Source: Candidatus Segetimicrobium genomatis
Lineage (GTDB): Bacteria; Sysuimicrobiota; Sysuimicrobiia; Sysuimicrobiales; Kaftiobacteriaceae
DNA length: 64,000 nucleotides
Reading direction: 5' to 3'
NCBI GenBank assembly: GCA_005882335.1
Contig: VBAP01000060.1
Coordinates: 850-64,849 of the forward strand
Shown here one piece after another: positions 10,448 through 61,948 of this stretch. Positions within the stretch are counted from its first letter, which is position 1. The number at the start of each line of letters is the position of its first letter. Below the pieces are notes generated by a model. It had not been told where the DNA came from and did not search any database. It saw nothing but the letters and a program-made list of their open reading frames with translations. The position numbers were made by a program, and so were the translations under genes.

Positions 10448-10451
10448 GGCG

Positions 10452-15424: not shown

Positions 15425-15503
15425 ACTACTCCTCACTTATACCCCTGGAAGCGATGGAGTCCGGTGGGGAAATCCCCGGTCGATTTTGGGTAGGTTATGC
15501 ATT

Positions 15504-37939: not shown

Positions 37940-37945
37940 GCGTCG

Positions 37946-39555: not shown

Positions 39556-39589
39556 GCGTGGCCCATCGGGCCAAGGCTCCCCGGAGGAT

Positions 39590-43391: not shown

Positions 43392-43392
43392 G

Positions 43393-45679: not shown

Positions 45680-46846
45680 ATGACTCCGCAGGGTGCGGTG
45701 CTGGTGTTCTGGTCCAGCGTGGCCTTGATCGCCTACGGGTATCTGGGCTACCCCGTGCTGGTCTACCTCCTGGGGCGGCTGCGCGGGCGCCCCCATCTCC
45801 GGGAGGAGATCACGCCGAGGATAAGCCTGCTGGTGCCCGCGTACAACGAGGGCGCGGTGGTCCGGGCGAAGATCCACAACTGCACTCAGCTCGACTATCC
45901 TCGGGAGCAGCTCGAAGTGTTCATGGCCTCGGACGGATCCACCGATGGGACCTCCGAACTGATTGCCGAGGCTGGGAACGCCGGCCTGCTTCGGGGGGTA
46001 GTGTACCAGCAACGGCGGGGCAAGGCGGCCGTCCTCAACGATCTGGTGGCGATGGCCTCCGGAGAGATTCTGGTGTTCTCGGACGCATCGACCATGCTCG
46101 ATCGCGGGAGCCTGCGGGCCCTCGCCAGCAACTTCGCCGATACCCGCGTGGGATGTGTGAGCGGGATCTATCGAGTCGTCCCAGGTGATCGACAGGGCAG
46201 CGGCGGCGCGGAGGCGGTCTACTGGCGCTATGAGACGTTCATCCGCCATGCTGAGGCGCGGCTCGGCTCAATGCTGGGGGCTCACGGAGCGCTGTATGCC
46301 ATCCGGCGGGAGTTGTTCGAGCCTCTCGAAGCGGGCACCAGGAACGAGGACTTCATCCTGCCGGTGATCATCCTGATGAAGGGCTACCGGTCGGTGTACG
46401 ACATCCGGGCGGTGGCGACCGAGGATGCGGGGGAGATGACCGGCTTTTCGCGGCGCGTCTCTCTTGCGGCAGGAAACTACCAGCAGATGGCGCTGTTGTG
46501 GAAACGGGGAGGCTGGCTGCGGAAACCCTTCCTGGTCTTTCAGTTGTGGTCCCATAAGGGGCTCCGCCTGGTGACGCCCTTGCTGCTCCTGGGCATGTAC
46601 CTGAGCAATCTGTGGCTGGTTTCCTCTGCGGGGTACAGGGCCGTCTTCGCCGCGCAGACCGTGTTCTTTACCGCGGCGCTGCTGGGGGCGCTCCCTCGCC
46701 TGCGGCGCTGGGGCCGCGCATTGGTGGCCGCGCCCTACTACTTTTGCATGGCGCACGCAGCCGGAGTCGTGGCCCTGCACCGCATGATGTGGGGAAAAAC
46801 CTTCGCGGGCCAGCGCGCTCCATCTCTGCTGTCCCACCGCAAATGA
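45680..46846 (+). CDS. Membrane-embedded family-2 glycosyltransferase
   Basis: ATG 45680. N-terminal TM, LLVPAYNEGAVV, SDGSTDGT, FSDASTMLD (DXD), then 3-4 C-terminal TM helices. Confidence 0.75.
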   Translation: MTPQGAVLVFWSSVALIAYGYLGYPVLVYLLGRLRGRPHLREEITPRISLLVPAYNEGAVVRAKIHNCTQLDYPREQLEVFMASDGSTDGTSELIAEAGNAGLLRGVVYQQRRGKAAVLNDLVAMASGEILVFSDASTMLDRGSLRALASNFADTRVGCVSGIYRVVPGDRQGSGGAEAVYWRYETFIRHAEARLGSMLGAHGALYAIRRELFEPLEAGTRNEDFILPVIILMKGYRSVYDIRAVATEDAGEMTGFSRRVSLAAGNYQQMALLWKRGGWLRKPFLVFQLWSHKGLRLVTPLLLLGMYLSNLWLVSSAGYRAVFAAQTVFFTAALLGALPRLRRWGRALVAAPYYFCMAHAAGVVALHRMMWGKTFAGQRAPSLLSHRK

Positions 46847-47946
46847 CATCCCAGAGGGGGTCGAGACCGCTGATGCCACAACCGGAGTGGGGAGCGGCGC
46901 CGCCGACCGCGCTGATCACGGGCGGGGCAGGATTCATCGGGTCTCATCTTGCCGAAGCGCTGCTCGACTCGGGAGCTGACGTCTACGCCATCGATGACCT
47001 CTCCACCGGGAGCATCGAAAACATCGAGCATTTGAAAGCCCGCGAGCGATTCCACTACATGGTCGATTCGATCATGCACGTCCCGGTGCTGGCCGAGCTC
47101 GTGGATCGATGCGACACCGTGTTCCACCTGGCCGCGGCCGTGGGGGTGCGCTTGATCGTGGAGAGCCCGGTACGCACCATCCAGACGAACATCCGAGGCA
47201 CGGAAGTGCTCTTGGAGCTGGCGGACAAAAAGAAGAAAAAGGTCGTGATCGCGTCGACCTCGGAGGTGTATGGGAAGACCGTCCGGGTGCCCTTCAAAGA
47301 GGATGACGATCTCGTCCTGGGGCCGACGGTCAAGGGGCGTTGGTCCTATGCCTGCTCCAAGGCGATCGACGAATTTCTGGCCCTCGCCTACTGGAAGGAG
47401 CGACATCTGCCGGTCGTCGTGGCCCGATTGTTCAACACGGTGGGCCCCCGCCAGACCGGCCGGTACGGGATGGTGCTGCCGACCTTCGTCACCCAGGCCC
47501 TCAACGGCCAGCCGATCACCGTGTTCGGGGACGGGAGACAGTCCCGCAGCTTCACGTACATCAGCGATGTGGTCTGGGCGCTGATGAAGCTGGCCGAGTG
47601 TGCCGGCGCGGTGGGGGAGGTGTTCAACGTGGGGCAGGACGTGGAGACCACTGTCGAGGACCTGGCCAGACAGGTGAAGGCAGCCACCGGCAGCTCCTCC
47701 GAGATCGTGCACATCCCGTATGACCAAGCCTATGAAGAGGGCTTCGAAGACATGCCCCGCCGTGTGCCCGACATTGCAAAGTTGAAGCGATACATCGGGT
47801 ATGAGCCGAAGGTGCAGCTGCCCGAAATGATCGACCGCGTGGTGGCCTACGAGAGGCGACGGCGCTCGCCGCGGCGGGATGGCGCATCGCTCCCCCAGAC
47901 CCGGAGCGATCCCTCGATGACGCTAAGTCGGATCAGCGGCAGGTAG
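46843..47946 (+). CDS. NAD-dependent nucleotide-sugar epimerase/dehydratase
   Basis: ATGA overlap. [26 protein letters not shown]. Contains an unusual KKKKK insert. Confidence 0.8.
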   Translation: MTSQRGSRPLMPQPEWGAAPPTALITGGAGFIGSHLAEALLDSGADVYAIDDLSTGSIENIEHLKARERFHYMVDSIMHVPVLAELVDRCDTVFHLAAAVGVRLIVESPVRTIQTNIRGTEVLLELADKKKKKVVIASTSEVYGKTVRVPFKEDDDLVLGPTVKGRWSYACSKAIDEFLALAYWKERHLPVVVARLFNTVGPRQTGRYGMVLPTFVTQALNGQPITVFGDGRQSRSFTYISDVVWALMKLAECAGAVGEVFNVGQDVETTVEDLARQVKAATGSSSEIVHIPYDQAYEEGFEDMPRRVPDIAKLKRYIGYEPKVQLPEMIDRVVAYERRRRSPRRDGASLPQTRSDPSMTLSRISGR

Positions 47947-47986: not shown

Positions 47987-49897
47987 ATGTGCGGAATCGC
48001 CGGTATCCTCTGCTATGATCCGAGTCGCTCGCCGGATCGCGACCTCATCGAGGCGATGAATCGGGCCATGCTCCATCGAGGCCCGGACGACGGCGGCATC
48101 TACCTGGACGGCCCTGTCGCGCTCGGCAACCGGCGGCTGAGCATCATCGATCTGGCGGCCGGGCACCAGCCGGTGGACAACGAGGATGGGACCATATGGA
48201 TCACCTACAACGGCGAGACCTATAACTACGCCGACCTGCGGGAGGAACTCCTCGCCAAGGGGCATCGCTTCAAGACCTCCGGCGACACGGAGGTCATCGT
48301 CCATCTGTACGAGGAGATGGGGGAACGGTGCGTGGAGCGTCTGCGGGGCATGTTCGCCTTCGCCCTCTGGGACAAGCGCCGGGCGCGCCTGCTCTTGGCC
48401 CGCGATCGCCTCGGCATCAAGCCTCTCTATTACTATCGCGGAGGAGAGTTTTTGGCCTTCGCCTCGGAGATCCGGGCGCTGCTGGCCCTGCCCACCATTC
48501 AGCCGCGGCTGAACCGGCGGGCCCTGCATGACTATCTCAGCTTTCAGTACACCGTGGCTCCCCAGACGATGTTTGAGGGGGTGCAGAAACTCGAACCCGG
48601 CCACCTCCTCGTGGCGAACGGCGCCGAAACGCGGCAGGAGCGATACTGGCGACTCGACTATTCCCGAAAGCTCCCGCTGTCCGAGGAGGCGTGCATCGAG
48701 GAGTTCCACGACCGGTTCGTGGCCGTCACCCGCAGCCACCTCGTCGGGGAAGTCCCCCTCGGCGTGATGCTCAGCGGAGGGCTCGATTCGACCGCGGTCG
48801 CGGCCGTCGTGTCCGAACTGGTGGGCCAGGTGAAGACCTTTTCGGTCGCGTTCGCCGACGACGGCGAGGGCTACGATGAACGCCGCTATGCCCGGCTCGC
48901 GGCGCGACACTTTGCCACCGACCATCACGAGATCGCCATGACCAGGCAGGACTTCGTTCGCGGCCTCCGCGACTACATCTGGTCAATGGAAGAACCCATG
49001 GCCGATCCATCCTCCGTGCCCCTCTACGCCGTCAGCCGGCTGGCCAGCGATCACGTTACCATCGTCCTCTCTGGGGAGGGCAGCGACGAGCTCCTGGGCG
49101 GCTACTCCTCGGCATCGGACTTCCGCGGCGTGGCCCGAGCGCGGTGGTTCCGCAAGATTCCCGCCCCGGTCCGCCGTGGACTCCTGGAGCCGCTGAACGC
49201 CGGACTCCTCCGCTCCTCGCGGATCCGCCGGCATCTCGACCTGGCCGACCGTCCGCTCTCACACTACCTCCAACTGGTGCCCACCTACATGGGAGGCAAC
49301 GTGTTCTCGGAGGAGGGGAAGCGGCAACTCTATGGACCTCGAATGCGCGAAGACGGCTGGCCGCGCTCCGAGGCGGTGGCGGTGGACGCCTATCGTCAGG
49401 CCGCGTCCTTCGAGTTCGTAGACCAGCTGCTCTCCGTGTACACCACGCAGTGGCTCCCGGACGATCTGCTGCTGAAGGCCGACAAGATGACGATGGCACA
49501 CTCGCTGGAACTGCGCGTGCCGTTTCTGGACCACACCTTTGTCGAGTTCGCGGCCAGCCTCCCCGTACGCCTCAAGATCAGGATGAACGGGCGCCGGAAC
49601 CTCATCACCAAGTACGCGCTGCGGCGGGCGTTCCAAGGCAAGATTCCGCGCGAGATCATCGAGCGGCCGAAACGCGGATTTCCCGTTCCACTGCAGCGGC
49701 TGCTTCGAGAGGATCTCAGATCCATGGCCCGGGACCTGCTCGGGTCGCGTCTGGTCCGCGAGAGCGGTCTGTTCGATCCGCAGCAGGTGCAGGCCCTCCT
49801 GCAGCTGTCCGAGGGGGCCGGCATCCGGGAGTATCTGCAGCTCTGGCGGCTGCTGGTCTTTTGCATCTGGCTCGATCTGTTCAAGGTCACCCCCTGA
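47987..49897 (+). CDS. asnB: Asparagine-synthase-family glutamine amidotransferase (AsnB-like; probable sugar-uronate amidotransferase)
   Basis: MCGIAGIL N-terminal nucleophile, SGGLDSTAV PP-loop, 636 aa. Confidence 0.85.
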   Translation: MCGIAGILCYDPSRSPDRDLIEAMNRAMLHRGPDDGGIYLDGPVALGNRRLSIIDLAAGHQPVDNEDGTIWITYNGETYNYADLREELLAKGHRFKTSGDTEVIVHLYEEMGERCVERLRGMFAFALWDKRRARLLLARDRLGIKPLYYYRGGEFLAFASEIRALLALPTIQPRLNRRALHDYLSFQYTVAPQTMFEGVQKLEPGHLLVANGAETRQERYWRLDYSRKLPLSEEACIEEFHDRFVAVTRSHLVGEVPLGVMLSGGLDSTAVAAVVSELVGQVKTFSVAFADDGEGYDERRYARLAARHFATDHHEIAMTRQDFVRGLRDYIWSMEEPMADPSSVPLYAVSRLASDHVTIVLSGEGSDELLGGYSSASDFRGVARARWFRKIPAPVRRGLLEPLNAGLLRSSRIRRHLDLADRPLSHYLQLVPTYMGGNVFSEEGKRQLYGPRMREDGWPRSEAVAVDAYRQAASFEFVDQLLSVYTTQWLPDDLLLKADKMTMAHSLELRVPFLDHTFVEFAASLPVRLKIRMNGRRNLITKYALRRAFQGKIPREIIERPKRGFPVPLQRLLREDLRSMARDLLGSRLVRESGLFDPQQVQALLQLSEGAGIREYLQLWRLLVFCIWLDLFKVTP

Positions 49898-49899
49898 CC

Positions 49900-51282
49900 G
49901 TGATAGGCCGCGTGCTGGTGATCAGTTATCTCTATCCTCCGTCTGAGGAGATGGGGGCCCAGGCGTGCGCACAGATCGCGCGTTACCTGCCAGACTACGG
50001 ATGGACGCCCATCGTCCTCACCGTGCGTCAGCCCCACCCCGACCGCGGGCGGCAGGCGGAGGGGATCCGCCGGGGGACGGAGATTCGCACCGCGGTGCTG
50101 CCGCACCCGTTCGCGATGTATCGTGCGCTCAGGTCGTGGGGGAGATCGATCCAGGTGGAGCCGGTTGATGAGGGGCTGCCGGACGAGTCCCGGCGACGCA
50201 GCCGGCTGCGCTATTGGGCGCTGTCCCTCCTGGCGGTGCCGGATGCCTTCACGGGGTGGATTCCCGCAGCAGTCCTGGCCGGGTGGCGGGCCATTCGACG
50301 TCACCGGGTCGAACACCTCATCTCCTCCGGACCACCATGGACCAGTCATCTGGTCGGCCTGATGCTGGCGCGCCTCAGCGGTCTGCCCTGGACCGCGCAC
50401 TTTCGTGATCCGTGGGTCATGTCACGCGTGGAGATGGCGAGGTTCAAACCCGTCAGCGCGCAGTCCCGGCGGCTGGAGGCAGCGCTGGAACGCATGGTCG
50501 TGACGAGGGCAGACACCGTGGTGTGCGTGACCGAAGAGCACGCCGCGCTGCTCCGCCGCGTCCATGCGCAGACCGACGCCAGCAAGTTTGTCACGATCCC
50601 AAATGGGTTCGACGGAGTAGAGTGGGAAGAACTGGCAGGCGGGGACCGCAGCGACGCCGCGGAGGGCGGCTCGTTTGTCATCACCTATGCCGGCACGCTG
50701 TATGATCGGCGGACGCCGGCGCCGCTCTTTCGGGCCCTGCGGGCGTTGATCGATGCGGGAGAGGTGGATCGCGAGCGAATCCGCATCGACTTGCTGGGAC
50801 GCTGCGACGTAGCCGACGGCCGCCGCGTGAGTGACCTCGCGGCGGAGTGTGGGCTCTCCGACTGCGTGCGGTTGACCGGACCGCTTCGCAGCAGCGACGC
50901 GTTGCGTCGCATGACACAATCCGATCTCCTGCTCCTGCTGGCCGAGGGATTGACCCTGCAGGTTCCCGGAAAGACCTATGAATATCTGCGGGCGGGCCGT
51001 CCCGTTCTGGCGCTGGCGCCGGAGGGGGCCGTGGCGCGGCTGTTGCGGAGGACGGCCGGGACATGGGTCATTGACCCTGCCGACCAGATAGGCCTTATCA
51101 CCGCGCTGCGCGAGGCCTATCGGCGGTGGGCGGATGGGACGGAGCTTCCGGCGCCGGACCCGGCTGCCGTGGCCGCCTTCGACAGACGGATCCTGGCCGG
51201 CCGGTTCGCTGAAGTGTTTGCAGGAGGAGCGACCGCCGCGCCCAGGCCCGAGAGTCGGCCGCAGGCCGGTGAGGCCAGATGA
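49900..51282 (+). CDS. Family-4 (GT-B) glycosyltransferase
   Basis: GTG start immediately after the asnB stop. VLVISYLYPP... N-terminal domain and a C-terminal Glycos_transf_1-like region. Confidence 0.65.
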   Translation: MIGRVLVISYLYPPSEEMGAQACAQIARYLPDYGWTPIVLTVRQPHPDRGRQAEGIRRGTEIRTAVLPHPFAMYRALRSWGRSIQVEPVDEGLPDESRRRSRLRYWALSLLAVPDAFTGWIPAAVLAGWRAIRRHRVEHLISSGPPWTSHLVGLMLARLSGLPWTAHFRDPWVMSRVEMARFKPVSAQSRRLEAALERMVVTRADTVVCVTEEHAALLRRVHAQTDASKFVTIPNGFDGVEWEELAGGDRSDAAEGGSFVITYAGTLYDRRTPAPLFRALRALIDAGEVDRERIRIDLLGRCDVADGRRVSDLAAECGLSDCVRLTGPLRSSDALRRMTQSDLLLLLAEGLTLQVPGKTYEYLRAGRPVLALAPEGAVARLLRRTAGTWVIDPADQIGLITALREAYRRWADGTELPAPDPAAVAAFDRRILAGRFAEVFAGGATAAPRPESRPQAGEAR

Positions 51283-52460
51283 TGTGGACGATGGACTCTG
51301 CGAAATCCGCCCACCTCATGCAGGTCGTGTACTCCCTCGTCCTGGGGGGCTCTGAGCGCCTGGCCTGTGACCTCGCCCTGCGGCTCGATCCGCGCCGCAA
51401 TCGCTCCTCGATCTGCGCGCTGGCGCACGGGGGGCCACTGGCCGGGACCCTCCACAACGCCGCGATCCCGTTCCACATCATCGGATGCGGGCCGGGGTTT
51501 CAGTGGCGTGTCGTCCCGAAGTTGTACCGCCTCTTCCGGGACAACAAGGTGGACGTGGTGCAGACGCATCACCTCAAGCAACTGGTCTACAGCGCCATCG
51601 GGGCCCGGCTGGCCGGCGCGGCGCTCGTGCACGTGGAACACGAGCACTTCTCGCTGCGGCCGCCGCGGGCCAGATGGCTGCTGCGTCTCATGGCGCCGCT
51701 CTGCCATCACATCGTGGCGATTGGAGACGATGTCAAGACGTTTCTCGTCAACGGCGTGGGACTTCCCGCCGCCAGGATCACCGTCATTCCCAACGGGGTG
51801 GACGTGGCTCGCTATCAGCCGGAGCCGCGGCGGGCCCGCGATGCCCTGGGACTCCGGCCACACCATCGGCTGATCGGCCATGTGGCGCGGCTGGAACCGG
51901 AAAAGGATCAGGTGAGTCTCTTGCAGGCATTCCGGACGGTGGCGGATGCCCATCCGGATGTTCGGCTCGTGATCGTCGGCGACGGCTCCCAGCGTCGTGA
52001 GCTGGAACGCGCGGCGACGGAGCTTGGGGTGGAAGGGCGCGTGGATTTCCTTGGCGTGCGAGAGGATGTGCCGGACCTGTTGCCGCACTTCGACGTCTTT
52101 GTGCTGTCGTCATCCAGCGAGGGGCTGCCCCTCTCGATCCTCGAGGCGATGGCGTGCGCGCGCCCGGTCGTGGCGACGGCGGTCGGGGAGATCTCCCGCG
52201 TGGTGACCAACGGAGTCACCGGCATGACGGTGCCGCCCGGTAATGCGCCTGCGCTCGCGCACGCCATGAGCATGATGCTCGACCGCCCGGCATGGGCCGC
52301 AGCCATGGGTGCCGCAGCCCGCCGGCTGGTCGAATCGGCCTATAGCCTGACACGGGTTGTCGAACAGTATCAGGCTCTCTATGCGTCGGTGTATGCGGCC
52401 CGCGGTTACGATCTGCCCACGTTGGGCGACTCAGACATCACACCCCCCCGGACCCGCTGA
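51279..52460 (+). CDS. Family-4 glycosyltransferase
   Basis: VVYSLVLGGSERLACDLA...SSSEGLPLSILEAMACARPVVATAVGE. Confidence 0.85.
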   Translation: MMWTMDSAKSAHLMQVVYSLVLGGSERLACDLALRLDPRRNRSSICALAHGGPLAGTLHNAAIPFHIIGCGPGFQWRVVPKLYRLFRDNKVDVVQTHHLKQLVYSAIGARLAGAALVHVEHEHFSLRPPRARWLLRLMAPLCHHIVAIGDDVKTFLVNGVGLPAARITVIPNGVDVARYQPEPRRARDALGLRPHHRLIGHVARLEPEKDQVSLLQAFRTVADAHPDVRLVIVGDGSQRRELERAATELGVEGRVDFLGVREDVPDLLPHFDVFVLSSSSEGLPLSILEAMACARPVVATAVGEISRVVTNGVTGMTVPPGNAPALAHAMSMMLDRPAWAAAMGAAARRLVESAYSLTRVVEQYQALYASVYAARGYDLPTLGDSDITPPRTR

Positions 52461-53734
52461 TGGCGTACGCGTTGCTATACATGCTGACCGCGTTTGCGGT
52501 CGGTCGGATCCAGGAGCTCTTCGAGTTTCTGGCGCCTCTCCGGATCGTCTTTCTGATGGGAGTGGCGTGTGTGATCTTGGCGCTCTTGACACCGCGGGGG
52601 AAACGACAACCGGTGCTGGCGCAGCGCGAGGTGCGGATCGTGCTCGGATTGGGCGGCCTCGCTCTCCTGCTGGTCCCCTTCAGCGTCTGGCCGGGTGGGA
52701 GTCTGGGCTTCCTGCTGGATAGCTACAGCAAGGTCATCGTCCTGTTTCTGCTCGTCGTGGCGCTCGCCGCGGATCCTGCGGTGGCCCGCAAGCTCGTCTG
52801 GGCTGTGCTGGTGGGTGTGGGCGTCCTGGGGATCTTCACGCTCGGCGGGGCATCCGTCAAGACGTCCCTGGAGTACACCGTCGCCAGGGCGTACGCCAGC
52901 TCCACATACGATCCCAACGATGTGGCCATGATCATGGTGGTCACATTGCCGCTGGCGGCCCTGGGCGCGGCCTCGCTCAAAGGTGGGGGCCGGCTCGGCG
53001 CGGCAGGCGTCGCGGTGATCTGTGTGCTCACCGTCATCAAAACGGTGTCGCGCGGCGGCTTCATCGGACTGGCCTGTGTCTCACTCCTGCTCATCCGCCG
53101 CTTGCGGTCGGCCGGGGCGCGCCTGCTCGTCAGCACGACTATCGTCGCAGCGCTCACCGTGGTGGCCCCCGCCGCCTACTGGGACATCATGGATTCGATC
53201 TGGAACCCGACGGGCGTGGGATATGTGGAGCGTGGGATCGGACCCCGGCTGGAGATCTGGTCCAGGGGGCTCGGGCTCCTATCCAAGCATCCCTTGACCG
53301 GTGTGGGGATCGGCATGTACGAGACGGCCGCCGGATTTCGATATGGCCGCAACGGCGGATGGGTCACAGCGCACAACTCGTTTCTCCAGCTCGCGGGCGA
53401 GCTGGGCCTGACCGGCTTCGTCCTCTTTGTCATGCTGCTCATGTTTAGCATCGGCAATGTCCGGCAGACCCTTCGGGCGGCGCAGGCCGACCCCGGACTG
53501 CGCGAGCTGGAATGGATCGCGGCGGCGGTAGAGATCTCGCTCTACGCCTACCTGGTGGTCGGGTTCACGCTGTCGCAGGCGTACGCGGCCATCCTCTACT
53601 TCCTGGTCGGTGTGGCCACCGCGTTGCGGGTGCAGGTCGAGCGTCGCCACCCGAGTGCCGTCCCGGTGGAAGAAGCCGCGGGTGGGCAGGCGCAGTGGGT
53701 CGGCCCGACCGCACAGGTGGCCCGCCATGCCTGA
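52460..53734 (+). CDS. O-antigen ligase / Wzy-type polymerase family membrane protein
   Basis: 424 aa, about 10-12 TM helices, periplasmic loop with HNSFLQLAGELGLTG, the Wzy_C motif. Confidence 0.7.
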   Translation: MAYALLYMLTAFAVGRIQELFEFLAPLRIVFLMGVACVILALLTPRGKRQPVLAQREVRIVLGLGGLALLLVPFSVWPGGSLGFLLDSYSKVIVLFLLVVALAADPAVARKLVWAVLVGVGVLGIFTLGGASVKTSLEYTVARAYASSTYDPNDVAMIMVVTLPLAALGAASLKGGGRLGAAGVAVICVLTVIKTVSRGGFIGLACVSLLLIRRLRSAGARLLVSTTIVAALTVVAPAAYWDIMDSIWNPTGVGYVERGIGPRLEIWSRGLGLLSKHPLTGVGIGMYETAAGFRYGRNGGWVTAHNSFLQLAGELGLTGFVLFVMLLMFSIGNVRQTLRAAQADPGLRELEWIAAAVEISLYAYLVVGFTLSQAYAAILYFLVGVATALRVQVERRHPSAVPVEEAAGGQAQWVGPTAQVARHA

Positions 53735-55496
53735 GTCGCTCAAAGTGGTCATCCTGACCGGACAAGACTCCCCGCTTACCTGCTCGATCGTCTCGACCCT
53801 GGCGCACCTCCCGGAGGCGCAGGTGGCCGGCATCATGATCGACTCCGGACGCGTCTCTGTCAAAGCCCGGCTGCGCAAGCTGCGGCGCAATGTGCGACGA
53901 CAAGGGTGGTCCTACCTCTGGTTTCGGTGGTGTGGTGCGATCACCGACTGGCTGGAACGGCTCGCTGCCGGCGTGGTGCCCAAGTCAGAGGTTTCCACGC
54001 TGTTCGCCGCGGCGTTTCCCGGTCAGGCCCTGACCCTTGATCAGCTCGGCATGCTGCATCGGATTCCGGTCTTTCGTGTAGACAACCTCAATAGTGCAAT
54101 CGCCGCCGAGATCCTCCGGCGCCTGACTCCGGATTTGGGTGTCGTGATTGGTACCAGGATCCTGAAACGGTCGACATTTTCCGTCCCCCGCATCGGCTGT
54201 CTGAACCTTCATCTCGGCAAGGTCCCTCAGTACCGGGGGATGCCCCCCGGCTTTTGGGAGCTGTATGACGGGTACCTCAGCGCCGGCGTGACCGTGCACC
54301 TGGTTGACGACGGCCTCGATACAGGCGATATCGTGGCAGAGGAAACCCTCTCCGTCCACGACCGAGACACACCCGAGACCCTCAAACGGAGGCTCGAGGC
54401 CCGGGGCCGCGAGGTGCTCGTGCAGTCCGTCGTGGCGCTCGCGCACGGGGTGGTCACCCCGAAGGCGCAGCCTGCCGGCCGGTGGCCGGTACGAACTGCA
54501 CCCACCCGCCGCGAGCGGAAGGAGCTGGCGCGGCGGCTCCCAGCGATGCGGGAGCGCCAGGCGATCTGGATGCACGCGCTCAAGACGGCGTATTACCTCC
54601 TCTTGTACTACGCGGGCCTACCATCGCTGTTTCGCACCGTGCGGAGAATCCGTGGGAAAAGCCGCGCCTGCATCCTCCTGTATCACCGGGTGAACGATCT
54701 GGCCGATGACCCGCTGACCACGGACGTGCGCCGATTCGCAGAGCACATGATGGTCCTGCGCAAGTCCTATGCCATGGTTCCGAGCTCGGTGCTTGTGGCC
54801 AAGGTCTGTGGCGGGCAAATGTTCCAAACCAACGCGGTGACCATCCATTTCGACGACTGCTACAGAGATGTGTTCGTGAACGCCAGGCCCGTGCTCGGCG
54901 CCCTCGCCGCCCCGGCCACGCTGTTTGTGTCATCTGGCTATGTGGGGACGCAACGACGGTTTCCGCACGATGAATCCGGCCCATGGATCTTCGAGAACCT
55001 GCATCCCGAGGAGGTGCGGGAACTGATCGCCTGCGGCTTCGAGGTCGGCTCGCACACCGTCAATCATGTCGATTTGGGCCAGGTGAGTGACGACACCGCC
55101 GCGACAGAGTTGACCCAGAGCAAGCGCGACCTGGAGGCGATGACCGGCCGCCCGGTGACGCTCTTTTCCTTCCCGTTTGGACGCGAGACGAATATCCGCC
55201 CGGGAGTCACCGCGTTGGTCCGCCAGGCAGGGTATCGGGCCATGTTCTCGGCCCATGGAGGCTATGTAACCCGCGCATCGGACCCCTTCGACCTGCCCAG
55301 GGTCGGGGCCAGCGGCGACACGCGGCCGCTCGACCTGATCATGGAGATCGAGGGGCTGTCGCTCGGTGCGCTGCGACGGCGGTGGAGGAGGGCGTGGTGG
55401 TTCTGCAAGAAGCCCTCGGCTTCCCGCTCGCCAGAACGGACACCATCACCACAGCCAGACGATGCCAGACTCATTCGTGAGGAGGAAATGACGTGA
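53727..55496 (+). CDS. Fusion protein: N-terminal formyltransferase-like domain (Fmt/ArnA-N/PurN fold) plus C-terminal NodB-type polysaccharide deacetylase
   Basis: ATG 53727. NLHLGKVPQYRGMPPGFWELYDG...GVTVHLVDDGLDTGDIV forms the formyltransferase core. FDDCYRDVFVNARPVL...GSHTVNHVDL carries the NodB motifs. Confidence 0.7.
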   Translation: MPESLKVVILTGQDSPLTCSIVSTLAHLPEAQVAGIMIDSGRVSVKARLRKLRRNVRRQGWSYLWFRWCGAITDWLERLAAGVVPKSEVSTLFAAAFPGQALTLDQLGMLHRIPVFRVDNLNSAIAAEILRRLTPDLGVVIGTRILKRSTFSVPRIGCLNLHLGKVPQYRGMPPGFWELYDGYLSAGVTVHLVDDGLDTGDIVAEETLSVHDRDTPETLKRRLEARGREVLVQSVVALAHGVVTPKAQPAGRWPVRTAPTRRERKELARRLPAMRERQAIWMHALKTAYYLLLYYAGLPSLFRTVRRIRGKSRACILLYHRVNDLADDPLTTDVRRFAEHMMVLRKSYAMVPSSVLVAKVCGGQMFQTNAVTIHFDDCYRDVFVNARPVLGALAAPATLFVSSGYVGTQRRFPHDESGPWIFENLHPEEVRELIACGFEVGSHTVNHVDLGQVSDDTAATELTQSKRDLEAMTGRPVTLFSFPFGRETNIRPGVTALVRQAGYRAMFSAHGGYVTRASDPFDLPRVGASGDTRPLDLIMEIEGLSLGALRRRWRRAWWFCKKPSASRSPERTPSPQPDDARLIREEEMT

Positions 55497-56878
55497 AGAC
55501 GTGCCTGAGGTTGCTGCTCCTGGGTGTGATCGTCTTTGGGTGGCCTGTGGGGGGAGTCAACGCCGCCGGGTCGCTCGTCGTGACCCCGGACACCCCCACG
55601 ATCACCGTGGGGCAGACCCAGCAGTTCAGCGCGAGCGGGGTCAGCCCCGCCATCGCGGTGTCCGGGGGTGGATTTCACACCTGCGCACTTCTCGCGGACG
55701 GCACCGTGCATTGCTGGGGGCGGAACGACTACGGGCAGCTGGGGAACGGAACCAGCGTGTCGTCCCCCACAGCACTGGCCGTTCCCGGCATCGCCACCGC
55801 CATCGCGGTGAGCGCGGGAGGCTATCACACCTGCGCGCTGCTTGCTGATGGCAGAATCCTGTGTTGGGGGGCCGATGACTTCGGGCAGCTGGGGAATGGG
55901 ACGCGAACCCATTCGTCCACCGTCCCCGTAGAGGTCGCAGGAATCACCACGGCGACCGCTGTCTCCGCCGGCGCCTTCCATACCTGCGCGGTGCTGGCGG
56001 ACGGGTCGGTCCGTTGCTGGGGATGGAACGACCTCGGGCAGCTCGGCAACGGGACCGTGTTAGCCTCTGCCACTCCCACCCAGGTCACCGGCATCTATAC
56101 CGCGAGCACGGTCAGCGCGGGCGGTTACCACACCTGCGCGGTGCTGGCGGATGGGTCCATGCGCTGCTGGGGACGGAACGATAACGGACAGCTTGGGAAC
56201 GGCACGTTTACCCCGTCGGCCGTCGCCGCGGGCATGGGGGCCGGTGGCGCCGTGCCGGTTCCAACGGTCGTCGTGGGCATCTCCACCGCGGTCGCGGCGA
56301 GCAGCGGGTTCATGCACACCTGCGCCGTGCTGTCGGAGGCGACGGTGCGGTGCTGGGGATGGAACGCTTATGGCCAGTTTGGCAACGGCACCGCTGCGGG
56401 GTCGGCCATACCGACTGAGCCTGTTGGACTTGATCCCACCTCCGCAGTCTCGGCCAGCGAGTGGCACACCTGCGCGCTGCTGTCCGGCGGCGCTCTTCGA
56501 TGCTGGGGGAGCAATGACTACGGGCAGCTCGGCAACGGCAGCACGACCCCTGCCTTCACTCCGGTGGCGGTCTCTGGTGTGACGGCGGCCACCAGCATCA
56601 CGACCGGGAACATCCACACCTGCGCCCTGCTCAGTGACGGGGCGGTGCAGTGCTGGGGCAGCAACGATTACGGGCAACTGGGCGATGGGACCACAACGCA
56701 GTCCTCTGTGCCTGTGACCGTCATCGGGAGCCGGGTGACGTGGGCGAGCAGCGATCCCGGCGTCGCGACCATCGACACGACCGGGCTGGCCACAGGGGCT
56801 GCCCCCGGGTCGTCGACAATTACAGCGTCCTCCTGGGACCGCTGCGGAAGCACGACCCTGACCGTCGCTTCGCTATAA
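55493..56878 (+). CDS. Secreted RCC1-repeat (beta-propeller) protein with C-terminal Big_2-like domain
   Basis: Signal peptide. About seven repeats of GxHTCALLxDGxVxCWGxNxYGQLGNGT. The C-terminus ...VATIDTTGLATGAAPGSSTITAS is Ig-like. Confidence 0.8.
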   Translation: MKTCLRLLLLGVIVFGWPVGGVNAAGSLVVTPDTPTITVGQTQQFSASGVSPAIAVSGGGFHTCALLADGTVHCWGRNDYGQLGNGTSVSSPTALAVPGIATAIAVSAGGYHTCALLADGRILCWGADDFGQLGNGTRTHSSTVPVEVAGITTATAVSAGAFHTCAVLADGSVRCWGWNDLGQLGNGTVLASATPTQVTGIYTASTVSAGGYHTCAVLADGSMRCWGRNDNGQLGNGTFTPSAVAAGMGAGGAVPVPTVVVGISTAVAASSGFMHTCAVLSEATVRCWGWNAYGQFGNGTAAGSAIPTEPVGLDPTSAVSASEWHTCALLSGGALRCWGSNDYGQLGNGSTTPAFTPVAVSGVTAATSITTGNIHTCALLSDGAVQCWGSNDYGQLGDGTTTQSSVPVTVIGSRVTWASSDPGVATIDTTGLATGAAPGSSTITASSWDRCGSTTLTVASL

Positions 56879-59144: not shown

Positions 59145-61025
59145 ATGTGCGGGATTGCCGGACAGGTGGCTCTGCAGCGCGACCGGGGCGTCGATCTTGC
59201 GGCCGTCCGCGCGATGACACGGGCGCTCGCCCACCGCGGGCCAGACGGCGAGGGCGAGTATCTTGCTCCCGCGGGCCGCGCTGCGCTGGGACACCGTCGC
59301 TTGAGCATCATCGACCTGGTTTCGGGCGGCCAGCCGATTTTTAACGAGGACCGCTCCATCGCCGTAGTGTTGAATGGCGAAATCTACAACTTCGCCTCCC
59401 TGCGCGCCGCTTTGGAGAAAGCCGGACATCGCTTCACGACTCGTTCCGACACCGAAGTCATCGTGCACCTCTACGAAGACCGAGGCGTGGACTGTGTCAG
59501 GGAACTGCGGGGCATGTTTGCATTTTTGCTGTGGGATGACCGGCAGGGACGGCTCCTCGCCGCCCGCGACCCCATCGGGAAAAAGCCCCTCTACTACGTG
59601 GAGCAGGGGGGGCTGTTGTCGTTCGCTTCGGAGATCACAGCCCTCTTTCAACTTCCCGATCTGCCGTGGCGACTCGACCCGGCAGCGATCGACCTGTACC
59701 TGTCGCATTCGTACATCCCCAGCCCGGCGACGATCCTCGACGCCGTGCGAAAGCTACCGGCGGCGCACCTCCTCGTGGTCGAGCGCGGGGCCGTCACTCT
59801 CAGTCGCTACTGGAGCCCGCCACAGGAGACCGTGGCGCTCGCGGCGGACGCAGAGCAACGGCTGGTCCACGCCCTGGAGGAGGCCGTCCGGCTCCGGCTC
59901 GTGGCCGACGTCCCCGTGGGGTGCTTTCTGAGCGGCGGCGTCGACTCGAGCGTGGTCGTCGCCCTGATGTCGCGCCTGAGTTCCAAGCCGGTCTGCACCT
60001 TCTCTATCGGCTTCGATCGCGAGGAGTACACCGAACTCCCTCATGCCCGTCGTGTGGCTGAGCTGTTCAACACCGATCACCACGAGTTCGTTGTGAAGCC
60101 CGATGCGGCCGGCGTGCTGCCCGACCTGGTGGCCAGCTTCGGCGAGCCGTTCGGCGACGCGTCTGCGCTGCCGGTGTGGTACGTGGCCCAACTCGCGCGC
60201 CGGCATGTGACGGTGGCCTTGAACGGCGACGGCGGCGACGAGTTGTTTGCCGGGTACCCCTGGTATGCGACCGGCGCCCGGCTGGCCGCGGCCGCGCAGT
60301 GGATCCCTCCTCTGGCGCAGGCGGTGCTGCGTCGCGACCCGGCACGCCGGTGGGTTCATGCACTTCCCCGCCGCGCCGCAAAGGGGCTCGATCTCGCCAG
60401 CCGCGACGACGCCGCTCGTTTCGCGGCGCTCCGCCGGACGCTGGAAGAGCCAGTGCGGGCGGGACTCTACACATCCCAGTTCGCGGCGCGGGTGGACGGC
60501 GCTGCGCTGGCCTACCTCGAGCAGACCTATCGCCAGGTGGGCGCGCGCGACCTGTTGCAGGCGATGACGCTGACGGACATGACCACCTACCTCCCCGAGG
60601 ACCTGCTGGTGAAGGTCGACCGCGCCACGATGGCCCACGCGCTGGAAGCTCGATCGCCGTTCCTGGACACCGATGTCGTCGAGCTGGCTCTGACGCTGCC
60701 GGCCAGGCTCAAGCGCGATGGGAATGGGACCAAGCGTATTGTGAAGAAACTCTTCGGGCCGCTGTTCCCGCCGGGGTTCCTGGAGCGCCCGAAGATGGGG
60801 TTTAGCCTGCCCGTGGACGAGTGGCTCCGCGGCGAGCTGCGGGGCCGGCTCGAGGCGCGGCTCTTGACGGGTGCGCTGGTCGACGCTGGGATCGTCCAGC
60901 CCACTATGATCAGGCGGTTGGTGAGCGAGCACGACGCCGGGCGATCCCGCGGGTCGGTGCTGTGGACGCTCCTCATGCTCGCAGAATGGTTCGAACGCTT
61001 CGGAGGGTCGGCCCGCTGGTCATAG
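59145..61025 (+). CDS. asnB: Second AsnB-family glutamine amidotransferase
   Basis: MCGIAGQV..., SGGVDSSVV. 626 aa, about 40% identical to the first. Confidence 0.85.
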   Translation: MCGIAGQVALQRDRGVDLAAVRAMTRALAHRGPDGEGEYLAPAGRAALGHRRLSIIDLVSGGQPIFNEDRSIAVVLNGEIYNFASLRAALEKAGHRFTTRSDTEVIVHLYEDRGVDCVRELRGMFAFLLWDDRQGRLLAARDPIGKKPLYYVEQGGLLSFASEITALFQLPDLPWRLDPAAIDLYLSHSYIPSPATILDAVRKLPAAHLLVVERGAVTLSRYWSPPQETVALAADAEQRLVHALEEAVRLRLVADVPVGCFLSGGVDSSVVVALMSRLSSKPVCTFSIGFDREEYTELPHARRVAELFNTDHHEFVVKPDAAGVLPDLVASFGEPFGDASALPVWYVAQLARRHVTVALNGDGGDELFAGYPWYATGARLAAAAQWIPPLAQAVLRRDPARRWVHALPRRAAKGLDLASRDDAARFAALRRTLEEPVRAGLYTSQFAARVDGAALAYLEQTYRQVGARDLLQAMTLTDMTTYLPEDLLVKVDRATMAHALEARSPFLDTDVVELALTLPARLKRDGNGTKRIVKKLFGPLFPPGFLERPKMGFSLPVDEWLRGELRGRLEARLLTGALVDAGIVQPTMIRRLVSEHDAGRSRGSVLWTLLMLAEWFERFGGSARWS

Positions 61026-61048
61026 GGCCAGGCGCGGCCGGTCACCCT

Positions 61049-61948
61049 GTGCTGAACGCACTGACGGTCGATGTGGAAGATTACTATCAGGTATCCGCGT
61101 TTCAGTCCATCGTCAGGTTCGAGACCTGGCCGGCCTACGAGAGCCGCGTCGAGCGCAACACCCACCGGGTGCTGGACCTGTTCGATGAGCACGCGGTGAA
61201 GGCGACGTTCTTCGTCTTGGGGTGGGAGGCGGAGCAGCGGCCGAGGCTGATCGAGGAGATTGCGAACCGAGGCCACGAGGTGGCGTCCCACGGCTACCGG
61301 CACCGCCCAGTCTACTCGATGACGCCGGCCGAGTGCCGGGACGACATCATCCGCGCGAAGCAGGTGCTCGAGGACATCACCGCAGCGCCTGTCCGTGGAT
61401 TCCGAGCGGCGAGCTTCTCGATCGTGGACCGATCGCTCTGGTGCCTCGACATTTTGACCTCGCTCGGCTTCGCCTACGATTCGAGCATCTTTCCCATCCG
61501 TCATGACCGCTATGGGATCGCCGGGGCCAGGAGGTTCCCACACGTCGTGCGGCGGTCGAACGGAGCCATCGTGGAGTTCCCGCTGTCCACCGTCCGGCTG
61601 TGCGGACAGAACATCCCGGTGGCGGGCGGCGGGTACCTGCGTTTCTTCCCCGCTGGCCTGATCGCGGCCGGCATTCGACGGATCAACTCCATGGAGCGCC
61701 AGCCGGCGATCGTCTACCTCCATCCCTGGGAACTTGATCCTGGACAGCCGAGGCTGGGGGGACCGCTCCCGAGGCGGCTCCGTCATTACGCCAACCTGCA
61801 GCGGATGGAGGAAAAGCTGCGCCGCCTGTTGCGTGAGTTTGCGTTTGGCACGGTGAGCACGGCGCTCGCGGCGTGCGGCGCGCTCTCGCCGACGCCGCGC
61901 GGGCAGTGGCAAGAGGCGATTGACGATGAGACCGCGGCGATCCGTTAA
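61049..61948 (+). CDS. Polysaccharide deacetylase, PEP-CTERM/exosortase-locus subfamily
   Basis: GTG start giving MLNALTVDVEDYYQVSAF, the characteristic N-terminus of this subfamily. Later ...GHEVASHGYRH... Confidence 0.75.
   Translation: MLNALTVDVEDYYQVSAFQSIVRFETWPAYESRVERNTHRVLDLFDEHAVKATFFVLGWEAEQRPRLIEEIANRGHEVASHGYRHRPVYSMTPAECRDDIIRAKQVLEDITAAPVRGFRAASFSIVDRSLWCLDILTSLGFAYDSSIFPIRHDRYGIAGARRFPHVVRRSNGAIVEFPLSTVRLCGQNIPVAGGGYLRFFPAGLIAAGIRRINSMERQPAIVYLHPWELDPGQPRLGGPLPRRLRHYANLQRMEEKLRRLLREFAFGTVSTALAACGALSPTPRGQWQEAIDDETAAIR

Follow-up and report, generated by a model that had tools for sequence, protein, structure and literature searches.

A 64,000-nucleotide stretch of a Candidatus Segetimicrobium genomatis contig (hereafter, the window) encodes a protein in which a formyltransferase-like domain is joined to a NodB/CE4 deacetylase-like domain. 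What would one enzyme do in an exopolysaccharide gene cluster if it could both transfer a formyl group and hydrolyze an N-acetyl group, and on which sugar would it act?

Results

An intact gene encodes the two-domain protein

A single polypeptide had been proposed at 53727–55496, and one 589-aa ORF occupies exactly these coordinates. Scanning of the window for ORFs showed a frame that is open without interruption from 53610 to 55496 on the + strand. The last 8 nt of the upstream Wzy gene, its stop codon included, overlap the frame that begins with the ATG at 53727, and an AGGTGG Shine-Dalgarno-like motif lies 7 nt 5′ of this ATG. Homologue N-termini line up at the same Met, and the same start was chosen independently in the gene annotation of a Logan contig that encodes an identical protein; this ATG was therefore taken as the start codon. 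Homologues of 45–66% identity are full-length, cover 93–98% of the query and contain both domains, indicating that no frameshift separates the two. Thus, the fusion gene is real and intact, and it lies inside an exopolysaccharide gene cluster. All features are listed in Table 1.

Table 1. Coordinates of the fusion gene, its domains and catalytic codons, and selected genes of the window.
Feature	Position	Strand	Remarks and basis
Formyltransferase–CE4 deacetylase fusion gene, complete	53727..55496	+	589 aa, stop codon included; ORF, Pfam, homologues
N-terminal formyltransferase domain	53727..54491	+	aa 1–255; Fmt/ArnA-N-like fold, no Formyl_trans_C; Pfam PF00551, phmmer, Foldseek
Three-helix insertion, ~60 aa, family-specific	53844..54026	+	aa 40–100, transferase N-subdomain; profile gap, model, conservation
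Catalytic Asn-x-His, N160-L161-H162	54204..54212	+	aligned to E. coli Fmt N108/H110
Catalytic Asp, D198 (GLDTGD)	54318..54320	+	aligned to E. coli Fmt D146
Ordered helical linker	54492..54662	+	aa 256–312; helices 261–275, 280–295, 298–308; pLDDT 84–98
C-terminal NodB/CE4 de-N-acetylase domain	54663..55406	+	aa 313–560; PgaB/IcaB/PplD subgroup; Pfam, Foldseek, phmmer
H320 (LLYHRV), N-terminally placed catalytic His	54684..54686	+	as in PgaB, IcaB, PplD
D376-D377 (HFDDCYRD)	54852..54857	+	catalytic Asp and metal-binding Asp; both invariant
H443-T-V-N-H447, two metal-binding His	55053..55067	+	aligned to PplD 'HTVNH'; invariant
R525 (LPR)	55299..55301	+	equivalent to PplD R302; position from PplD alignment
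C-terminal tail, disordered, Pro/Ser/Arg-rich	55407..55493	+	aa 561–589; pLDDT 40–63; unconserved in homologue alignment
GT4 glycosyltransferase	51279..52460	+	proposed partner adding HexNAc(A); only wzy between it and the fusion; Pfam
Wzy_C-type polymerase/ligase	52460..53734	+	Pfam, NCBIfam (TIGR03097-like)
Asparagine-synthase-like XrtA/PEP-CTERM-type amidotransferase	59145..61025	+	recurrent fusion neighbour; Pfam
UDP-ManNAc-dehydrogenase-like gene and UDP-GlcNAc 2-epimerase (WecB)	36593..39555	+	Pfam, NCBIfam
True TIGR03006 member (XrtA-system polysaccharide deacetylase), separate gene	60821..61948

The formyltransferase domain retains its catalytic triad

Formyl_trans_N (PF00551) matched residues 127–234 with 66.2 bits (cut-off 26.1), although only positions 72–180 of the 181 in the profile were covered. 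Searches with phmmer matched the domain to Fmt (3q0i, 1fmt) and ArnA, with ArnA-N among the best matches at 57–66 bits, and Foldseek retrieved Fmt, ArnA-N, the FDH hydrolase domain and WbkC with E values of 1e-10 to 1e-15. Since Pfam matches to both halves exceed their cut-offs, and the motifs LNLHLGKVPQYRG...HLVDDGLDTGDI and DDCYRD...GSHTVNHVDL are present, the preliminary description was right to read an Fmt/ArnA-N-like core joined to a NodB deacetylase.

The Asn/His/Asp triad, which the preliminary description had marked for checking, is intact. N160 is kept in 52/54 close loci and H162 and D198 in 53/54 each; the three residues, like P167, R170-G171 and the LDTGD motif, are found in 26/26 distant members, and only one or two of 111 members have lost the triad. 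The SLLP motif that usually follows the catalytic His is replaced here by G-K-V-P. Conservation of the triad and its flanking motifs argues for retained catalysis, for which N10-formyl-THF would be the donor.

The family-specific insertion was modeled by AlphaFold2 as helices at residues 45–59, 62–81 and 86–96 (pLDDT > 90). The first of these helices, VKARLRKLRRNVRRQ, is strongly basic, with a net charge of +8, and R48, L52, R54, N55, R58, G60, Y63 and R67 are near-invariant. We propose that this element may bind the acceptor or the membrane.

Neither named enzyme of the fold fits the protein as a whole. Against Fmt (TIGR00460), it scored 75 bits versus 201.5 over profile positions 56–197 only, with no PF02911 match; against ArnA (NF005998), it scored 66 bits versus a cut-off of 777 in the transferase part only, its C-terminus being CE4.

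The deacetylase domain belongs to the PgaB/IcaB/PplD subgroup

Polysacc_deac_1 (PF01522) matched residues 369–505 with 78.4 bits (cut-off 23.1), and the best Foldseek match of the domain was PplD (6dq3; TM-target 0.87, E 3e-16), with BC0361, IcaB and PgaB next in rank. H320 lines up with the His of PgaB 'sWHnv' and IcaB 'cYHrv' and is invariant, both in the close loci (54/54) and in the distant ones (26/26); what its PplD counterpart H105 does has been described (PMC8807736). D376 aligns with PplD D167 (chain offset 90). Judged by their PplD and PgaB equivalents, D377, H443 and H447 would form the metal triad, and D376 and H320 would be catalytic; all five are invariant. Motif 3 reads S481-x-P483-x-G485 and lacks an Arg. 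In PplD, R302 holds the catalytic Asp and replaces the absent motif-3 arginine (PMC8807736); the corresponding R525 is kept in all 50 close loci that could be aligned and in 26/26 distant ones. The N-terminal His, the Arg-less motif 3 and the distal Arg place the domain in the PgaB/IcaB/PplD subgroup. An H414-D415 insertion in the domain is also invariant across the family.

No ArnD-named entry was found among 18 NCBIfam matches (E<=1), 23 PDB sequence matches (E<=1) and the top 50 Foldseek matches, in libraries whose ArnD content is unconfirmed. HfsH (NF050820) was the best deacetylase-type NCBIfam match, and it was rejected at 39.9 bits versus 400, as was the XrtA-system polysaccharide deacetylase TIGR03006 at 19.4 bits versus 276.2.

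The two domains are predicted to form one cytoplasmic body

The AlphaFold2 model of the fusion is a single rigid two-domain body. As the linker is ordered and the model confident (pLDDT 93, pTM 0.91), both active sites are predicted to be held in this one body. Stand-alone deacetylase relatives (P0234, P0235 and others; 270–310 aa) start at the linker helices, and the maximum KD-19 hydropathy of the protein, 1.45, falls outside the linker; this segment is an N-terminal extension of the deacetylase module and not a membrane helix. Neither a signal peptide nor a membrane helix was predicted anywhere in the protein. The protein is best explained as a bifunctional enzyme of the cytoplasm, either soluble or peripheral, whose two domains are predicted to share a compartment.

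The fusion is a widespread conserved family

A database search for this domain order, as the preliminary description had suggested, recovered the fusion in ~200 clusters at 50% identity. In genome collections, 223 matches were confirmed, mostly from Acidobacteriota; distant members occur in Burkholderiales, Gammaproteobacteria, Gemmatimonadota and Planctomycetota, and cultured Massilia strains, such as Massilia norwichensis LMG 28164, carry the fusion. All members are annotated only as "polysaccharide deacetylase", and our literature searches found nothing on the fusion or on any biochemistry of its members. The family is thus widespread, conserved and unstudied rather than a one-off. In relatives of 28–35% identity, N160, H162, D198, H320, D376, D377, H443, H447 and R525 are each kept in 26/26, indicating that selection maintains the two catalytic sites across phyla.

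Variants of the architecture were also found. A GT4 domain is fused to family members in both orders, giving triple fusions, and P0233 and P0256 combine the same deacetylase module with GT4 and have no transferase. Since these two proteins contain no formyltransferase, the substrate of the deacetylase cannot depend on a formyl group. In P0098, the transferase triad is lost and the deacetylase kept, indicating that the two activities are separable.

Neighbouring genes link the fusion to a GT4 glycosyltransferase

The fusion is tightly linked to GT4, which adjoins it in 19/48 loci and lies within 10 kb in 36/48, and the order GT4–Wzy–fusion is repeated in the closest relatives (L089, L090). The best NCBIfam match of the window GT4 is the PEP-CTERM/XrtA glycosyltransferase TIGR03088, below cut-off; BshA, MshA, PglH and PglJ models are also matched, those of BshA and MshA with scores that stay under the cut-off. 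This GT4 shares 31% identity over its full length with the GT4 domain fused in P0041. An amidotransferase is found <10 kb from the fusion in 23/48 loci and directly downstream in L083, L085 and L086; the one in the window has a paralogue at 47987..49897, and the two score 588 and 531 bits against TIGR03108, below the cut-off of 817.

The dehydrogenase encoded next to WecB matches the nucleotide-sugar dehydrogenase model above cut-off (410 bits) and the UDP-ManNAc dehydrogenase models below theirs; together, the two genes probably supply a 2-acetamido uronic acid precursor. The gene at 46612..47946, taken earlier for uxs, was not confirmed as such: it encodes an SDR that falls below every NCBIfam cut-off, its best matches being a LegB-type 4,6-dehydratase and a UDP-4-keto-pentose/UDP-xylose synthase. 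That the window holds no sugar aminotransferase was upheld by Pfam analysis of all large ORFs and by tblastn with two DegT queries, and only 1/48 flanks contains a DegT aminotransferase. Among the locally encoded functions, de-N-acetylation is therefore the only one that could yield a free sugar amine.

Proposed mechanism for acetyl-to-formyl exchange

Based on these findings, we propose that GT4 adds a HexNAc(A), CE4 de-N-acetylates it and the transferase formylates the freed 2-amine, all in the cytoplasm, a model that we rate slightly above an even chance. The setting would be a Wzx/Wzy-type, XrtA/PEP-CTERM-like exopolysaccharide pathway. The partner GT4 would place a 2-acetamido sugar, either HexNAc or a HexNAc-uronic acid such as ManNAcA, onto the growing repeat unit, which is probably undecaprenyl-diphosphate-linked. 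The metal-dependent CE4 domain would then hydrolyze the N-acetyl group and expose the 2-amine, to which the N-terminal domain would move the formyl group of N10-formyl-tetrahydrofolate. The net effect would be exchange of acetyl for formyl, yielding a 2-formamido sugar in the polymer. In this scheme, the reaction order, the substrate with its carrier and N10-formyl-THF as donor are inferred. As GT4 is fused to the deacetylase in P0233 and P0256, which have no transferase, the deacetylase would act on the GT4 product independently, placing de-acylation before formylation. Moreover, pathways receive 2-amino sugars in N-acetylated form (GlmU), which makes deacetylation a prerequisite for a 2-N-formyl sugar. 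Natural 2-formamido uronic acids are known, e.g., GalNFoA in P. aeruginosa O6.

Some points count against the model. About a third of acidobacterial loci have no GT4 or EPS genes inside 10 kb, and P0098 shows that the activities can be separated. A further point concerns the acceptor class: to our knowledge, all characterised sugar N-formyltransferases (WlaRD, WbkC, VioF, ArnA) act on 3- or 4-amino nucleotide sugars, and none on 2-amines or lipid-linked glycans.

Alternative explanations

The two activities could instead be independent and only co-localised, with CE4 leaving a cationic HexN in the polymer, as PgaB, PplD and HfsH leave free-amine HexN, while the transferase formylates another amine, either on a 3- or 4-amino sugar from a pathway encoded at another genomic site or on an amino-acid substituent. 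The GT4–deacetylase fusions, in which a free amine is a possible end product, and P0098, with its deacetylase and degenerate transferase, are consistent with this, as are DegT aminotransferases 3–8 kb from the fusion in L086 and L087 and, in the window operon, genes for a GNAT and for an amino-acid adenylation enzyme resembling DltA. However, the rarity of DegT noted above and the presence of the adenylation enzyme in just 2/48 flanks speak against either source, and a fusion whose fixed domain order and rigid inter-domain model (pTM 0.91) are kept across phyla exceeds what co-localisation needs. We consider such independence unlikely.

The preliminary description had proposed two functions. 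N-deacetylation followed by N-formylation fits the evidence; the other, transient protection as in ArnA/ArnC/ArnD, in which an amino nucleotide sugar is formylated, transferred by a glycosyltransferase and then deformylated by the NodB domain to a free amine, found no support and appears improbable. ArnA-N does rank among the top transferase matches, ArnD belongs to the NodB family, the triple fusions that include a glycosyltransferase would fit a formylate–transfer–deformylate line, and the operon SDR resembles, below threshold, both the C-terminal domain of ArnA and UDP-xylose synthases. Nevertheless, the window has no aminotransferase to supply a free-amine nucleotide sugar, the deacetylase groups with the PgaB/IcaB/PplD de-N-acetylases and gave no ArnD-named match in the searches above, the same module pairs with GT4 in transferase-free proteins, and the partner is a GT4 and not an ArnC-like GT2. 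Because both domains are predicted in the same compartment and in one rigid body, such a formylating and deformylating pair would be futile.

Least probable, and very much so, is that the N-terminal domain is no sugar formyltransferase and serves as an N10-formyl-THF hydrolase-like, regulatory, structural or substrate-binding aid to the deacetylase. Formyl-THF hydrolases (PurU, the FDH N-terminal domain) share the Asn/His/Asp triad and are among the matches, and the G-K-V-P replacement, the large N-subdomain insertion and the partial profile coverage would be compatible with such a role; yet the complete conservation of triad and flanking motifs in distant members and the rarity of triad loss argue for retained catalysis, and it is not obvious what a formyl-THF hydrolase would do in a glycan operon.

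Discussion

N-formyl sugars are immunodominant decorations on bacterial surface glycans, and every characterised N-formyl sugar pathway that we know of formylates a 3- or 4-amino nucleotide sugar. The literature searched assigns no enzyme to the formylation of 2-amino sugars. If acetyl-to-formyl exchange is correct, the fusion would represent a separate post-glycosylation route that rewrites the ubiquitous C2 N-acetyl group. Its gene could then mark 2-formamido sugars in the genomes of uncultured soil phyla, most of all in Acidobacteriota, where exopolysaccharides are important for soil aggregation, and the protein could serve as a compact two-step glycoengineering tool. We further suggest, as a tentative view held at somewhat less than even confidence, that the members of this family are specialized in editing N-acyl groups. 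They would be the first sugar N-formyltransferases to act on a glycan-bound, probably lipid-linked, 2-amine instead of a nucleotide sugar, hard-wired to the CE4 that makes their acceptor and often to the GT4 that installs the sugar, and would establish a way of making 2-formamido sugars that has not been described before.

The fusion resembles the lipid A Ara4N enzymes ArnA and ArnD in its transferase fold and Asn/His/Asp triad, and in that a formyltransferase and a NodB-fold enzyme serve one glycan pathway. Unlike ArnA, it has no decarboxylase or Formyl_trans_C domain, and the window has no ArnB-type aminotransferase; its NodB domain, in turn, resembles PgaB/IcaB/PplD, with no detectable likeness to ArnD. 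Whereas ArnA and ArnD formylate and then deformylate, the fusion would deacetylate and then formylate, and the N-formyl group would be permanent. With WbkC, WlaRD, Rv3404c, QdtF and PseJ, it shares the catalytic core (25–41 bits; Foldseek E about 1e-10) and would share the folate-dependent chemistry. The acceptors of those enzymes are 3- or 4-amino NDP-sugars from aminotransferases, in contrast to the 2-amine that the fused deacetylase would free, and they lack its ~60-aa basic insertion and C-terminal CE4 barrel.

The N-terminal catalytic His, the D-D and H-x3-H motifs and the Arg-less motif 3 with its distal Arg are common to the fusion and PplD, PgaB and IcaB. The latter three act outside the cytoplasm and give the finished polymer or linkage unit a free amine, whereas the deacetylase domain of the fusion has no export signal, is joined to cytoplasmic transferase and GT4 domains and carries the H414-D415 insertion. 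HfsH, the Caulobacter holdfast oligosaccharide deacetylase, and TIGR03006 are likewise CE4 enzymes of Wzx/Wzy-type EPS loci.

The pathway logic of the proposed route has counterparts in NodC/NodB/NodA, MshA/MshB/MshC, BshA/BshB/BshC and LpxA/LpxC/LpxD, in which GlcNAc is installed or used, deacetylated, and the amine re-acylated. Unlike in these lines, the new acyl group would be formyl from folate. The fusion deacetylase is a CE4, in contrast to the LmbE- or LpxC-type enzymes of all of them except NodB, and the last two steps are combined in one fusion protein, sometimes all three.

Gene model, domains and predicted structure

The fusion gene occupies a single open reading frame, in which the ATG at 53727 is the supported start of a 589-aa protein: homologue N-termini line up at the same methionine, it is also the start in a separate gene prediction for an identical protein on a metagenomic contig, an AGGTGG motif lies 7 nt 5' of it, and the stop codon of the wzy-like gene upstream ends 8 nt into the fusion gene. 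The preliminary description had given exactly these coordinates (53727..55496), and its placing of a formyltransferase and a NodB-type deacetylase on one polypeptide is borne out by Pfam, with Formyl_trans_N at residues 127-234 (66.2 bits vs a cut-off of 26.1) and Polysacc_deac_1 at residues 369-505 (78.4 bits vs 23.1). No Formyl_trans_C domain was found with Pfam. The reading frame is free of frameshifts; homologues of 45-66% identity are 550-610 aa long, cover 93-98% of the query and carry both domains. The fusion protein belongs to the Formyl_trans_N and CE4 superfamilies. It falls outside ArnA, Fmt, HfsH and the XrtA-system deacetylases, with all equivalog scores far below the cut-offs, and, as far as tested, outside ArnD as well.

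The AlphaFold2 model, built on a 111-sequence alignment, has a mean pLDDT of 93.1 and a pTM of 0.91, a value that a two-domain protein reaches only when the relative placement of its domains is confidently predicted. In Foldseek searches against the PDB, the N-terminal half matched Fmt, ArnA-N, the FDH hydrolase domain and WbkC, and the C-terminal half matched PplD best (TM-target 0.87, E 3e-16), followed by BC0361, IcaB and PgaB. The transferase N-subdomain contains a family-specific three-helix insertion (aa 40-100), the first helix of which (aa 45-59) has a net charge of +8 and several near-invariant Arg residues; because of this insertion, Pfam matches only the second half of the Formyl_trans_N profile. 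The three helices modeled for the linker (aa 256-312) are ordered and, since the stand-alone deacetylase relatives (270-310 aa) begin with them, belong to the deacetylase module. The fusion has no signal peptide and no predicted membrane helix. The hydrophobic linker KTAYYLLLYYAG was considered as a membrane helix leading to a periplasmic deacetylase and was rejected: the maximum 19-residue hydropathy (1.45) lies inside the barrel core, the modeled helices are ordered and packed, basic residues are found on both sides, and these helices also form the start of the stand-alone and GT4-fused relatives.

Positions of the fusion and of other features in the window
Feature	Position	Strand	Remarks
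Open reading frame of the fusion	53610..55496	+	supported start 53727
Insertion in the deacetylase domain	54948..55001	+	aa 408-425
Partner GT4	51279..52460	+	parted from the fusion by the wzy-like gene alone
Separate deacetylase	60821..61948		TIGR03006, 378 vs cut-off 276, passes
RCC1-repeat protein	55493..56878	+	461 aa; overlaps the fusion stop by 4 nt
SDR gene	46612..47946	+	about 235 nt shared with the GT2 ORF before it
Sub-cluster of the exopolysaccharide operon	39443..44185	+
DltA-like amino-acid adenylation enzyme	41276..42907		TIGR01733, 388 bits, above cut-off
NusG-domain paralogue	31780..32433	+	just 5' of the chain-length determinant and priming transferase genes
Second glycan-related gene set	5692..13091	-
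UDP-glucose dehydrogenase and epimerase	13101..15436		adjoin the second glycan-related gene set

Catalytic sites and their conservation

Alignment with phmmer matched PRIGCLNLHLGKVPQYRG and GLDTGD to the stretches of E. coli Fmt containing N108, H110 and D146, which identifies N160, H162 and D198 as an intact Asn/His/Asp triad in the fusion. In the deacetylase half, D376-D377 (HFDDCYRD) and H443 and H447 (HTVNH) supply the classical NodB set of catalytic and metal residues, with the D-D and H-H ligands all present. The canonical CE4 motif-5 histidine is not conserved in the family (FSA[YH]GG in the homologue alignment). The invariant H320 (LLYHRV) aligns with the histidine of PgaB 'sWHnv' and IcaB 'cYHrv'; D376 and R525 align with D167 and R302 of PplD (6dq3), and motif 3 reads S481-x-P483-x-G485. 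PplD, PgaB and IcaB have in common an N-terminally placed catalytic His (PplD H105), a motif 3 without Arg, and a distal Arg (PplD R302) that holds the catalytic Asp (PMC8807736). All three features recur in the CE4 domain of the fusion, as H320, the Arg-less motif 3 and R525. The fusion shares the catalytic signature of this subgroup but not its extracytoplasmic location.

Conservation was assessed in the fusion gene extracted from 80 genomes, comprising 54 closer relatives and 26 distant ones (28-35% identity; Burkholderiales, Gammaproteobacteria, Gemmatimonadota and Planctomycetota). N160, H162, D198, H320, D376, D377, H443, H447 and R525 are each kept in all 26 distant relatives, and the same catalytic residues of both domains are kept in nearly all of the closer ones. 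Given this conservation, both halves of the fusion are very probably active enzymes.

One full-length member, P0098, has lost the triad and the LDTGD motif ('CICLDTG', 'DEDWGTSD') and kept all deacetylase residues; it is a predicted natural transferase-dead variant. The insertion at residues 408-425, TQRRFPHDESGPWIFENL, lies between NodB motifs 1 and 2 and outside the PplD alignment. It harbors H414-D415, invariant at 80 of 80 genome loci, which could provide a second metal or acid-base pair or contact the transferase domain.

Family distribution

A word-indexed search returned 551 matches, and the best 120 of these were nearly all full-length two-domain proteins. An exhaustive search of 1.84 billion cluster representatives gave 203 matches at E<=1e-30, mostly of 510-620 aa, and tblastn confirmed 223 matching stretches in a collection of genomes from 185,579 species. 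Most of the latter come from Acidobacteriota MAGs (Bryobacterales, Acidobacteriaceae, Ca. Acidoferrum), and cultured Massilia species are also among the carriers, with an orthologue in Massilia norwichensis LMG 28164 (locus L058). Database names for the family, where given, are limited to 'polysaccharide deacetylase family protein' or a COG-style double label. As its sequences are in public databases already, the architecture as such is not new, but its implied function and GT4 linkage appear to be undescribed: searches that included exopolysaccharide, O-antigen/N-formyl and PEP-CTERM contexts found no paper on a formyltransferase–deacetylase fusion, and the paper on the Rubrivivax psc1 cluster lists deacetylases and no formyltransferase.

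Genomic context

The window contains a large exopolysaccharide locus of Wzx/Wzy type and XrtA/PEP-CTERM kind. Its chain-length determinant passes TIGR03007 (283 vs a cut-off of 279), and it further encodes the separate deacetylase, a priming transferase, Wza, Wzi, Wzx, Wzy, several GT4 and GT2 proteins and two asparagine-synthase-like amidotransferases. Genes for a UDP-GlcNAc 2-epimerase and for a protein resembling UDP-ManNAc dehydrogenase point to a 2-acetamido uronic acid as a precursor. The preliminary description had seen no aminotransferase in the window, and this holds after a Pfam scan of all large ORFs and tblastn with DegT. The closest relatives (65-66% identity) keep the order GT4–Wzy–fusion; one of them, locus L090, goes on with GT–GT4–AsnS–DUF3473 deacetylase.

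Across the family, the most constant partner of the fusion is a GT4 glycosyltransferase, which is directly adjacent on the same strand at 19 of the 48 loci with full flanks and lies within 10 kb at 36. The adjacent GT4 is mostly upstream in the acidobacterial group (7 upstream, 2 downstream) and on the downstream side in the proteobacterial group; roughly one in three acidobacterial loci has no GT4 in the flank. The association extends to fusions of the order GT4–formyltransferase–deacetylase (P0041, P0090, P0172) and formyltransferase–deacetylase–GT4 (P0171, P0181, P0199, P0263), and to GT4–deacetylase fusions without the transferase (P0233, P0256). Asparagine-synthase-like amidotransferases occur within 10 kb at 23 of 48 loci. 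Of two DegT queries used in tblastn, one matched a single flank (1/48 within 10 kb) and nothing in the window, and the other matched nothing.

Proposed mechanism

Based on these data, we propose that the most likely role of the fusion is to replace an acetyl with a formyl group at C2 of a HexNAc or HexNAc-uronic acid residue. The partner GT4, which is cytoplasmic, resembles the HexNAc transferases BshA, MshA, PglH and PglJ below cut-off. The deacetylase module would work with the GT4 also where a protein has no transferase, which argues that its substrate is an N-acetyl group on the GT4 product and not an N-formyl group. Moreover, 2-amino sugars enter metabolism already N-acetylated; since no aminotransferase was found in the window and DegT occurs in only one of 48 flanks, the amine for the fused formyltransferase would be the one that the deacetylase exposes. 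The swap would take place on the cytoplasmic face, probably on a lipid-linked repeat unit, before flipping by Wzx; we infer in what order the two reactions occur, which carrier is used and that the formyl donor is a folate. Established parallels to this logic are NodC/NodB/NodA, MshA/MshB/MshC, BshA/BshB/BshC and LpxC/LpxD. A chemical precedent for the proposed 2-formamido product is 2-formamido-galacturonic acid (GalNFoA), which occurs, partly amidated, in the P. aeruginosa O6 O-antigen. By analogy, we speculate that the frequent neighboring amidotransferases amidate uronic acids likewise.

N-deacetylation followed by N-formylation was one of two options raised in the preliminary description, and is preferred here given the missing aminotransferase and the pairing of deacetylase and GT4 without a formyltransferase. 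The other option, a transient formyl protect/deprotect cycle like that of ArnA and ArnD, is improbable: its aminotransferase is missing, the ArnD-like enzyme that it needs finds no counterpart among the NCBIfam, PDB sequence and Foldseek matches listed, none of which is named ArnD, and the transferase-less GT4–deacetylase fusions contradict it. An ArnD-like deformylase was rejected because no match in those searches is named ArnD, and an aminotransferase-derived acceptor on the DegT results.

That the two domains act independently on different residues is unlikely; they are separable in relatives, yet such independence would leave unexplained both the conserved, rigid fusion and the absence of another amine source. 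It is very improbable that the N-terminal domain is no transferase at all but a formyl-THF hydrolase or a structural module, a reading hard to square with phylum-wide conservation of the triad and its surrounding motifs. A reaction like that of Fmt or LgrA, in which an aminoacyl group would be formylated after activation by the DltA-like enzyme, was also rejected, because that enzyme occurs in just 2 of 48 flanks and the Fmt C-terminal domain is missing.

Other features of the window and of related loci

The preliminary description had called the SDR gene uxs (UDP-GlcA decarboxylase). This was not confirmed: the product reaches no NCBIfam cut-off and is matched best by LegB-type 4,6-dehydratase, UDP-4-keto-pentose/UDP-xylose synthase and the ArnA C-terminal domain. 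Its first ~100 residues match no domain, which, together with the overlap with the GT2 ORF, indicates that the true start is probably downstream of 46612. Directly downstream of the fusion lies a gene for a protein with seven RCC1 repeats (beta-propeller), a C-terminal Big_2 domain and a hydrophobic N-terminus resembling a signal peptide. An RCC1 propeller is unusual in an exopolysaccharide operon; the same gene follows the fusion at locus L088, and at L090 its place is taken by an unannotated gene of 459 aa.

The sub-cluster at 39443..44185 encodes a SAM methyltransferase, a luciferase-like monooxygenase, the DltA-like enzyme, a GNAT acetyltransferase and a flavin reductase, suggesting aminoacyl or acyl decoration of the polymer; on the related contig L089, the equivalent sub-cluster adds a PP-binding carrier protein. 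The NusG paralogue might serve the long operon as a dedicated antiterminator of the RfaH/UpxY kind. The second glycan-related set includes an 1181-aa protein that joins an ABC exporter to an APH-type kinase domain, an 878-aa protein that joins a GT2 to a GH2-like TIM barrel, an ATP-grasp protein and, encoded separately, an APH-family kinase.

Some family members are located outside glycan loci. One of them, L081 (10001..11716, P0085; a 355-kb contig of an uncultured member of the Acidobacteriota), has the fusion without glycan genes within 10 kb; its neighbors are unrelated genes for a TonB-dependent-receptor-like protein, carbonic anhydrase and DinB. In a recurrent acidobacterial module at L083, L085 and L086 (P0041, P0029 and P0067), the genes follow one another as GT4, fusion, two tandem asparagine-synthase-like amidotransferases, a second Polysacc_deac_1 protein (370-400 aa), Wzy_C and a BNR_4-like protein, with FemAB-like Acetyltransf_6 genes nearby. 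From this gene content, the polymers of these loci appear to carry several different N-modifications.
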